Assembly: GCF_036507355.1 (NCBI RefSeq)
Contig: NZ_AP027877.1
Length of the DNA stretch: 64,000 bases
Reading direction: 5' to 3' (one strand)
From: Escherichia coli
GTDB lineage: Bacteria; Pseudomonadota; Gammaproteobacteria; Enterobacterales; Enterobacteriaceae
Part shown: one piece after another, positions 51,809 through 53,001 of the stretch
Numbering within the stretch: the stretch's first letter is position 1
How the letters are laid out: each line of letters opens with the position of its first letter
Translations under genes and position numbers: made by a program
The notes under the pieces: model-generated
Told to the model about the DNA's origin: nothing
The model's database searches: none
Seen by the model: only the letters and a program-made list of their open reading frames with translations

Positions 51809-51824
51809 TGGCATCCACTTTGCA
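51809..51824 (+). promoter_or_regulatory. sigma-54 (-24/-12) promoter of the rut operon: TGGCATCCACTTTGCA
   Basis: GG-N10-GC spacing matches the TGGCAC-N5-TTGCW consensus, 29 bp upstream of the first candidate rutA ATG. Confidence 0.6.
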
Positions 51825-51852
51825 AACAAGCCATTACGCGGCTGAAAAGGAT

Positions 51853-53001
51853 ATGCAGGACGCAGTGCCCCGTCTGACTTTCACTTTACGAGACGAAGAG
51901 AGGTTGATGATGAAAATTGGCGTATTCGTACCTATTGGCAACAACGGCTGGCTCATTTCGACCCACGCGCCGCAGTACATGCCGACCTTTGAACTGAATA
52001 AATCCATTGTGCAAAAAGCGGAGCACTACCATTTCGATTTCGCTCTGTCGATGATCAAACTGCGTGGCTTTGGCGGCAAAACTGAGTTCTGGGATCACAA
52101 CCTTGAGTCGTTCACCTTGATGGCGGGGCTGGCAGCCGTGACCTCGCGCATTCAGATTTACGCGACAGCTGCCACCTTAACGTTACCTCCGGCAATCGTC
52201 GCCCGTATGGCCGCAACCATCGACTCAATCTCTGGCGGACGTTTTGGCGTCAACCTCGTGACTGGCTGGCAAAAGCCCGAGTATGAGCAGATGGGTATCT
52301 GGCCTGGCGATGACTATTTCTCCCGTCGTTACGACTATCTCACCGAATATGTTCAGGTGCTGCGCGACCTGTGGGGCTCGGGGAAAAGCGATTTTAAAGG
52401 CGATTTTTTCACCATGAATGATTGTCGCGTCAGTCCGCAACCGAGTGTACCCATGAAAGTGATCTGCGCCGGGCAAAGCGACGCTGGCATGGCGTTCTCC
52501 GCCCAGTATGCCGATTTCAACTTCTGTTTCGGCAAAGGCGTAAATACACCCACGGCTTTCGCCCCGACCGCTGCGCGGATAAAACAGGCCGCAGAGCAAA
52601 CCGGGCGCGACGTTGGCTCTTATGTATTGTTTATGGTGATTGCCGATGAAACCGACGATGCCGCTCTCGCCAAATGGGAACACTACAAAGCGGGCGCGGA
52701 TGAAGAGGCGTTAAGCTGGCTAACCGAACAAAGTCAGAAAGATACCCGCTCCGGTACTGACACCAACGTCCGTCAGATGGCCGATCCCACTTCGGCGGTA
52801 AACATCAATATGGGGACGTTAGTCGGTTCTTACGCCAGTGTCGCGCGCATGTTAGATGAAGTCGCAAGCGTGCCTGGTGCCGAAGGCGTGCTGTTAACCT
52901 TCGACGATTTTCTGTCGGGAATCGAAACCTTCGGCGAGCGCATTCAACCACTGATGCAGTGCCGCGCCCATCTCCCTGTGCTGACTCAGGAGGTGGCATG
53001 A
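51853..53001 (+). CDS. rutA: pyrimidine monooxygenase RutA (luciferase-like); start ambiguous (alternative ATG at 51907)
   Basis: Recognised RutA; 382-aa form starts MQDAVPRL, 364-aa form starts MMKIGVF with SD GAGAGG. Confidence 0.9.

Follow-up and report, generated by a model that had tools for sequence, protein, structure and literature searches.

Which ATG starts the rutA gene of Escherichia coli is answered differently by different records. The question is raised here by a 64,000-nucleotide stretch of E. coli DNA (contig NZ_AP027877.1; hereafter the window) that carries the E. coli putA / rutR / rutABCDEFG region, in which the ATG codons at positions 51853, 51907, and 51910 are all in the rutA reading frame. 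The curated record of K-12 MG1655 (NC_000913.3, NP_415532.3) begins the protein at the equivalent of 51853, with a length of 382 amino acids. A first-pass annotation of the window had proposed that the main product is a shorter RutA, initiated at the in-frame ATGATG at 51907-51912 behind a GAGAGG Shine-Dalgarno (SD) sequence. Its coordinates proved exact, and the shorter product is borne out by the comparison of related loci, variation within E. coli, the protein family model TIGR03612, SD energetics, and annotation practice. The refinement that we add, strongly supported by the sequence comparisons, is that the second ATG of the pair, at 51910, is the universally conserved and correctly spaced one. 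We put at roughly 0.88 the probability that RutA starts at 51910, as a protein of 363 amino acids, and that the ATG at 51853 lies in the untranslated leader. The candidate start codons and their surroundings are the following.

51853..51855, plus strand: ATG, the curated rutA start in K-12 MG1655 (382-amino-acid form), within a conserved leader block.
51907..51909, plus strand: first ATG of the pair (364-amino-acid form), 3 nt after GAGG, a possible minor alternative start.
51910..53001, plus strand: rutA coding sequence, pyrimidine monooxygenase RutA, 363 amino acids plus stop; start supported by ATG in 79/79 loci, TIGR03612, the NCBI Prokaryotic Genome Annotation Pipeline (PGAP), the structure 6SGG, and the Swiss-Prot entry RUTA_ECOD1.
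51895..51905, plus strand: SD region GAAGAGAGGTT, with the core GAGGT at 51900-51904.
51835..51909, plus strand: predicted rutA 5' untranslated leader of ~75 nt; the median predicted leader over 79 loci is 77 nt.

Upstream DNA was fetched for 80 rutA loci from different Enterobacterales species, and 79 of them were analysed. All of these (79/79) have ATG as the counterpart of 51910, and in 69 an RGG of the GAGG(T) type ends 6-7 nt before it. At the codon aligned to 51907, ATG occurs in two loci, GTG in 20, and a non-start codon in the remaining 57, with the position of the SD sequence unchanged. Initiation mainly at 51907 would yield a 364-amino-acid RutA with an MMKIG N-terminus, and it would use the first AUG past the strong SD sequence; the entries 6SGL, 6TEF, and 6TEG of the Protein Data Bank (PDB) were deposited at 364 amino acids, and the equivalent codon is GTG in 20 further loci. 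However, this codon is a non-start codon in 57 of the 79 loci, its gap to GAGG is 3 nt compared with 6 nt for 51910, and both the family model and PGAP begin one codon later, and we consider 51907 distinctly unlikely to be the main start.

The region upstream of the conserved ATG does not behave as a protein-coding extension in these species. In 39/79 loci, the 57 nt that precede the conserved ATG contain an in-frame stop codon. The leader block that surrounds the ATG at 51853, described below, is kept in 59 loci, and in these the triplet aligned to 51853 is ATG in 20, GTG in 15, and otherwise CCG, AAG, CGG, TTG, CTG, TAG, TCG, CAG, or AGG, at a distance from the conserved ATG that falls into all three frames (30/16/13). 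A long form like that of K-12, with an ATG that is both in frame and followed by an open frame, is possible in only six of the 79 loci. Between the block and the SD sequence the leaders can hardly be aligned, and their indels have lengths other than multiples of three; to judge from these alignments, this part of the leader looks non-coding.

Within E. coli, a 501-nt query across the site finds 95-99% identity in 5,421 of 5,426 complete genomes, and the exact 86-nt allele of the window is present in 660 complete genomes, ATCC 8739 among them; the rut control region of the window is ordinary E. coli. One lineage has a CGA to TGA change at codon 13 of the extension (window 51889-51891), and its exact 81-nt allele occurs in 15 complete E. 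coli genomes, for example those of SCPM-O-B-8794 (L003:1144-1200) and NT1N25 (L083). This lineage, whose hosts are pigs, a cat, and humans, also carries L8R and E15K in the extension and has rutA annotated as intact; its leader is unusually divergent, with 90-95% identity to other E. coli over the 81 nt. Polymorphism was assessed in 12 E. coli sequences representing nine distinct alleles. The 57-nt extension has seven variable sites, distributed 3/2/2 over codon positions 1/2/3, whereas the next 190 nt of the coding sequence have 12, distributed 2/0/10 (Fisher p=0.045). In this small sample the extension polymorphisms are without codon-position bias, consistent with non-coding DNA.

Two purine-rich sequences could serve the candidate start codons, GAGAGG at 51898-51903 and AAGGA at 51847-51851. 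The duplex of GAAGAGAGGU with the 3' end of 16S rRNA has a calculated energy of -8.6 kcal/mol, which only ~2% of random 20-mers drawn from the window attain; the gap from this duplex to the start codon is 1 nt for 51907 and 4 nt for 51910. The AAGGA duplex with the 16S 3' end reaches -5.4 kcal/mol and is separated from the AUG at 51853 by 1 nt (0 nt past the duplex span). The first-pass annotation had rated the downstream SD sequence as the better one, which holds both for pairing energy and for spacing. Counted from GAGG, the spacing is 3 nt to 51907 and 6 nt to 51910, and among the three candidate starts the aligned spacing of efficient SD sequences fits only the combination of GAGG with 51910. 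A canonical SD sequence, taken as pairing together with a spacing of about 5-9 nt, is present at 51910 and absent at 51853. Because a single nucleotide separates AAGGA from the AUG, AAGGA is essentially unusable as an SD sequence for 51853.

These values also bear on whether both ATGs might be used, with most initiation at 51910 and a minority at 51853, which in Escherichia would yield a little of a 382-amino-acid isoform with a disordered 19-residue tail of no conserved role. The great majority of sampled E. coli alleles have both the ATG and the open frame, AAGGA pairs with the anti-SD sequence at the energy given above, the predicted accessibility of positions 51847-51855 is not below that of the downstream ribosome-binding site (mean unpaired probability 0.48 vs 0.32), and the long form folds and crystallises (5WAN). 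We nevertheless regard such dual initiation as unlikely: by the general rule for SD spacing, the 1-nt gap to the AUG is well under a functional distance, the natural nonsense allele persists in 15 genomes, the substitutions seen in the extension follow a non-synonymous and nonsense pattern, and in 73/79 related species no long form is possible. That 18 codons stay open is unremarkable by chance, with an expectation of (61/64)^18, about 0.42.

Annotation practice and the protein records divide between the two ends. In each of the nine PGAP-annotated E. coli genomes that were sampled, the start is placed at the 51910 equivalent (363 amino acids); one of them is a K-12 derivative in which the gene has the same end coordinate as in MG1655. 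Swiss-Prot holds the identical protein with two N-termini, RUTA_ECOLI with 382 amino acids and RUTA_ECOD1 with 363. The 363-amino-acid form, named "pyrimidine utilization protein A", is found on at least 1000 contigs vs 569 for the 382-amino-acid form. A third length variant, of 367 amino acids, is represented by one member of the RutA cluster. The NCBIfam equivalog model TIGR03612 scores 723 bits against a cut-off of 498.3, and its positions 1-354 correspond to residues 20-373 of the long form, with model position 1 at the Met encoded at 51910. Among the RutA structures, 5WAN contains the long form with a tag, 6SGG and others contain 363 amino acids, and 6SGL, 6TEF, and 6TEG contain 364; a review (PMC7662398) is silent on the construct boundaries. 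The view that the 382-amino-acid form from 51853 is the main physiological product has the NC_000913.3 and RUTA_ECOLI annotations and the 5WAN construct on its side, but the comparative, population, SD-spacing, and family-model evidence is all contrary to it, and we consider it extremely improbable.

Several points weigh against a start at 51910 alone. The long form was crystallised in a folded state (5WAN), and the extension is evidently tolerated. AlphaFold favours the short form in that it gives residues 1-17 of the long form a predicted local distance difference test (pLDDT) score below 50 and places the first β-strand of the barrel at residues 21-28, but we give this little weight, since the low score of the extension is partly an artefact of the missing alignment depth in that region. 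An 18-nt leader before 51853 is short yet possible, given the leaders of hypA (20 nt) and zraS (21 nt), and AAGGA does pair with the anti-SD sequence. Most E. coli have the ATG at 51853 and its open frame intact, the polymorphism comparison draws on few E. coli sequences, and the literature searched contains no translation initiation site profiling result and no N-terminal peptide for RutA.

The short start is itself already known, being used by PGAP, TIGRFAMs, one Swiss-Prot entry, and recent crystal structures; what we find is an inconsistency of K-12 curation, in which NP_415532.3 and RUTA_ECOLI probably carry 19 residues foreign to the native enzyme. The choice of start affects the numbering of RutA residues, which is offset by 19 between 5WAN and the 6SGG series, and the design of expression constructs and fusions. 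It also means that 57 nt of regulatory leader are now labelled as coding in K-12, and relabelling them brings out a conserved leader motif, which would be put down to codon conservation as long as they count as coding.

How the leader is delimited at its 5' end depends on the rutA promoter, and the control region upstream of the leader contains the following features.

51809..51824, plus strand: sigma-54 -24/-12 element TGGCATCCACTTTGCA, TGGCAT-N5-TTGCA, with GG at 51810-51811 and GC at 51822-51823.
51835 (±2 nt), plus strand: predicted rutA transcription start site (TSS), placed by the rule of PMC4591121.
51729..51744, no strand assigned: RutR box TTGACCGTTTAGTCCA, the exact reverse complement of the site published from chromatin immunoprecipitation on microarrays (ChIP-chip).
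51706..51722, no strand assigned: NtrC-like enhancer site 2 TGCATGTTTTATGTGCA, centre about -121 from the predicted TSS, 21 bp from site 1.
51685..51701, no strand assigned: NtrC-like enhancer site 1 TGCACTCTCATCGCGCA, centre about -142 from the predicted TSS.
50984..51622, minus strand: rutR coding sequence, a TetR-family repressor gene divergent to rutA, located from the RefSeq annotation of a near-identical E. coli mapped over and from the open reading frame list.

The element TGGCATCCACTTTGCA occurs once in the window, with its GG and GC 10 nt apart and one mismatch to TGGCAC-N5-TTGCW. Its end lies 29 positions before the A of the ATG at 51853, with 28 nt between them, exactly as the first-pass annotation had it. 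The bare pattern is unremarkable: TGGCAC-N5-TTGCA with at most one mismatch gives one match vs 1.8 expected in 64 kb. The promoter is judged real because of its context. It is intergenic and oriented toward rutA, TGGYRY-N5-YTGCD is found upstream of rutA in 79/79 orthologous loci, and it lies ~110-150 bp downstream of the two NtrC-like sites and also downstream of the RutR box. In K-12, the sigma-54 peak OS10 obtained by chromatin immunoprecipitation and sequencing (ChIP-seq) lies at the rutA promoter, with the motif CTGGCATCCGCTTTGCA (PMC4591121), as does an RpoN peak from genomic SELEX (PMC8743547). In TGGCATCCACTTTGCA the window has the already published sigma-54 promoter of E. coli rutA, which depends on NtrC; EcoCyc listed the rutA promoter as "predicted" when PMC4591121 appeared, and a single base of the non-conserved spacer sets the window allele apart from K-12 (CCAC vs CCGC). 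Both NtrC-like sites are one-mismatch matches to TGCAC-N7-GTGCA, of which there are three per 64 kb, two of them adjacent here, and from this pattern and the published NtrC dependence they are putatively assigned to NtrC. The ChIP-chip RutR site reported for rutA is TGGACTAAACGGTCAA (PMC2475637).

Bonocora et al. (PMC4591121) place the TSS 19 bp downstream of the motif centre, and with the 17-mer at 51808-51824 this rule predicts a rutA TSS at ~51835, which in K-12 corresponds to ~1074029 on the minus strand of NC_000913.3; the leader would then measure 18 nt up to the ATG at 51853 or 75 nt up to that at 51910. The promoter is therefore very close to the first ATG, as had been claimed: a leader of 18 nt would be the shortest among the protein-coding sigma-54 targets in Table 1 of that study, where hypA has 20 nt, zraS 21, yhdW 70, ytfJ 71, and glnA 73, and a leader of ~75 nt is typical of sigma-54 targets. 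A simple scan of the spacer found no sigma-70-like promoter that would give 51853 a longer leader, and no mapped rutA TSS and no study of the rutA start codon or promoter turned up in the literature searched.

Two side observations concern promoters and leaders in other species. Pantoea allii LMG 24248 has two rutA loci on two contigs (L081 and L082) with identical 139-nt leaders and a sigma-54 motif equal to the TGGCATCCACTTTGCA of the window; the doubled locus may stem from the assembly, or from a recent duplication or transfer. Buttiauxella massiliensis and B. gaviniae (L037:1074-1200 and L038:1016-1200) have leaders of 127 and 185 nt with a partly palindromic insert between the promoter and the SD sequence, which may be a small repeat or mobile element.

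Taken together with the start at 51910, the promoter suggests the following course of expression. Transcription of rutA would begin near 51835 from the NtrC-activated sigma-54 promoter at 51809-51824, and the GAGGU SD sequence at 51900-51904 would direct ribosomes to start at the ATG at 51910. The product would be a 363-amino-acid RutA whose first β-strand follows directly after the initiator Met, and the ATG at 51853 would be a chance in-frame ATG in a ~75-nt leader, within a conserved non-coding block. Motif positions, SD energetics, conservation, the patterns of substitution, and annotation practice are observations, while the exact position of the TSS and the near or complete lack of initiation at 51853 in vivo are inferred.

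51836..51873, plus strand: leader block, with ACGCGG at 51836-51841, GGA at 51849-51851, the core GCAGGACGC at 51855-51863, and GCCCCGT at 51867-51873.

The leader alignment shows nucleotide-level conservation of this block that reaches from Escherichia as far as Pantoea, Erwinia, and Serratia. Its general form is GGA, N3-7, and GCAGGA(U/A/C)GC, with the flanks RCGMSG and GCMRCGY. The core GCNGGANGC is found in 59/79 loci and lies 27-33 nt past the -12 element in 53 of these 59; 53 aligned sequences show no variation in the GGA or the flanking G/C, and the variable base of the core is U in 37 loci, A in 15, C in 6, and G in one. A second GGA occurs at most 16 nt upstream of the core in 55/59 loci. 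Because the block surrounds it, the ATG at 51853 is present and in frame across most E. coli, and thus seems more credible as a start codon. Eight Pantoea loci (L043, L047, L051, L053, L055, L057, L065, and L067) carry a tandem duplication of CAGGAWG (GCAGGATGCGTGCAGGAAGC) ~60-80 nt before the ATG, in which the duplicated core takes the place of the simpler upstream GGA of E. coli. No such block is present in the short leaders of the Enterobacter cloacae complex, Buttiauxella, Dryocola, and Yersinia, where the sigma-54 motif is 56-70 nt upstream of the rutA ATG. The block-less loci are L021, L023, L024, and L025 (E. hormaechei/cloacae group), L039 and L045, L040, L044, L048, and L056 (Buttiauxella), and L072, L076, and L077 (Yersinia); these species are natural deletion variants and possible controls for the function of the block.

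One explanation for conservation around 51853 is that its ATG opens a regulatory upstream open reading frame or leader peptide, which would be fused in frame to rutA in K-12 and end early in other lineages. The triplet at this position is ATG, GTG, or TTG in 38/59 block-containing loci, and the frame has 12 codons in the TGA lineage. The excess of NTG is, however, explained by TG belonging to the conserved nucleotide block, and 21/59 loci have no start codon despite the conserved surrounding nucleotides. With no usable SD sequence, and with neither the start codon nor the sequence, length, and frame of the peptide conserved, this explanation was rejected as very improbable.

Nor could the conservation be attributed to RNA structure. 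No Rfam 15 match was found at E≤10 on either strand of 51600-52050, and shuffled sequences fold at least as stably as the E. coli leader (z=+0.77). RNAalifold gave -0.68 kcal/mol for the block, with only two invariant pairs (30-38 and 31-37), and -1.58 kcal/mol for the full leader, with nothing beyond invariant pairs. A hand-drawn outer stem has one covarying pair (G-C in 37, A-U in 11) and a constant central mismatch. A conserved RNA fold, or sequestration of the SD sequence, was ruled out on the grounds of too little energy and covariation; the block is conserved as sequence, and not demonstrably as structure. Two features of the minus strand were also rejected. A sigma-54 site suggested by eye in the block's reverse complement has its GG and GC one nucleotide too far apart (GG-N11-GC), and a single sigma-54 peak is reported at rutA; a weak terminator-like hairpin with a T-run at 51872-51856 (one vs 0.3 expected) is probably due to chance.

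The leader block is potentially a new element, and the only such part of the finding on the rutA start. It might act as a cis-regulatory element in the first ~40 nt of the mRNA, bound by CsrA, another RNA-binding protein, or a small RNA, and couple carbon status to nitrogen-scavenging pyrimidine catabolism, a proposal that we make tentatively and consider rather doubtful. If it were true, control could be exerted by, for example, 5'-end protection or modulation of translation, the "start codon" of K-12 would be a by-product of the element, and the E. cloacae complex, Buttiauxella, and Yersinia would be lineages that dropped the control. No link between CsrA and rutA was found in the literature searched, and the supplements of an E. 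coli CsrA study by cross-linking, immunoprecipitation, and sequencing (CLIP-seq; PMC5694010) list rutR and not rutA. Binding of the rutA leader by CsrA is a lead from sequence likeness, not a result. The cultures of the E. coli CsrA CLIP-seq dataset were reportedly grown in rich medium, where rutA should be silent. The absence of rutA is probably uninformative, because in rich medium the gene should be untranscribed. A CsrA CLIP-seq peak (peak_110) does lie within the rutR coding sequence, at NC_000913.3 1074528-1074704, roughly window 51160-51336 on the minus strand (PMC5694010), which suggests that CsrA may touch the rut regulon via the repressor RutR.

The likeness to CsrA ligands is in the sequence of the core. 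CsrB carries the repeat CAGGA(U/A/C)G, the CsrA SELEX consensus is RUACARGGAUGU, and ligands present GGA in a hairpin loop (PMC7652899); the core of the rutA leader equals the CsrB repeat and resembles the SELEX consensus. It can also form a hairpin of 2-4 bp with GGA in the loop, as CsrA ligands do, with pairs that are invariant and thus without covariation support. In E. coli rutA, however, no GGA overlaps the SD sequence, and the spacing of the two GGAs in the rutA leader, about 9-11 nt, is at the lower limit of the reported CsrA range.

The promoter closely resembles those of other NtrC-activated sigma-54 targets (glnAp2, glnK, astC, and nac), which likewise have GG-N10-GC, two NtrC-type sites lying ~120-140 bp upstream, and a spacer rich in AT; if RutA starts at 51910, the ~75-nt leader matches that of glnA (73 nt), and there is no essential difference between the promoter of the window and the published rutA promoter. 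The discrepancy between the records for the start codon resembles the over-extension of starts in other curated references, in which an older record keeps the longest open reading frame and its first ATG, while profile-guided annotation, here PGAP with TIGR03612, takes the conserved start. Unlike a random ATG in a leader, the probably spurious ATG of rutA sits in a conserved nucleotide block.

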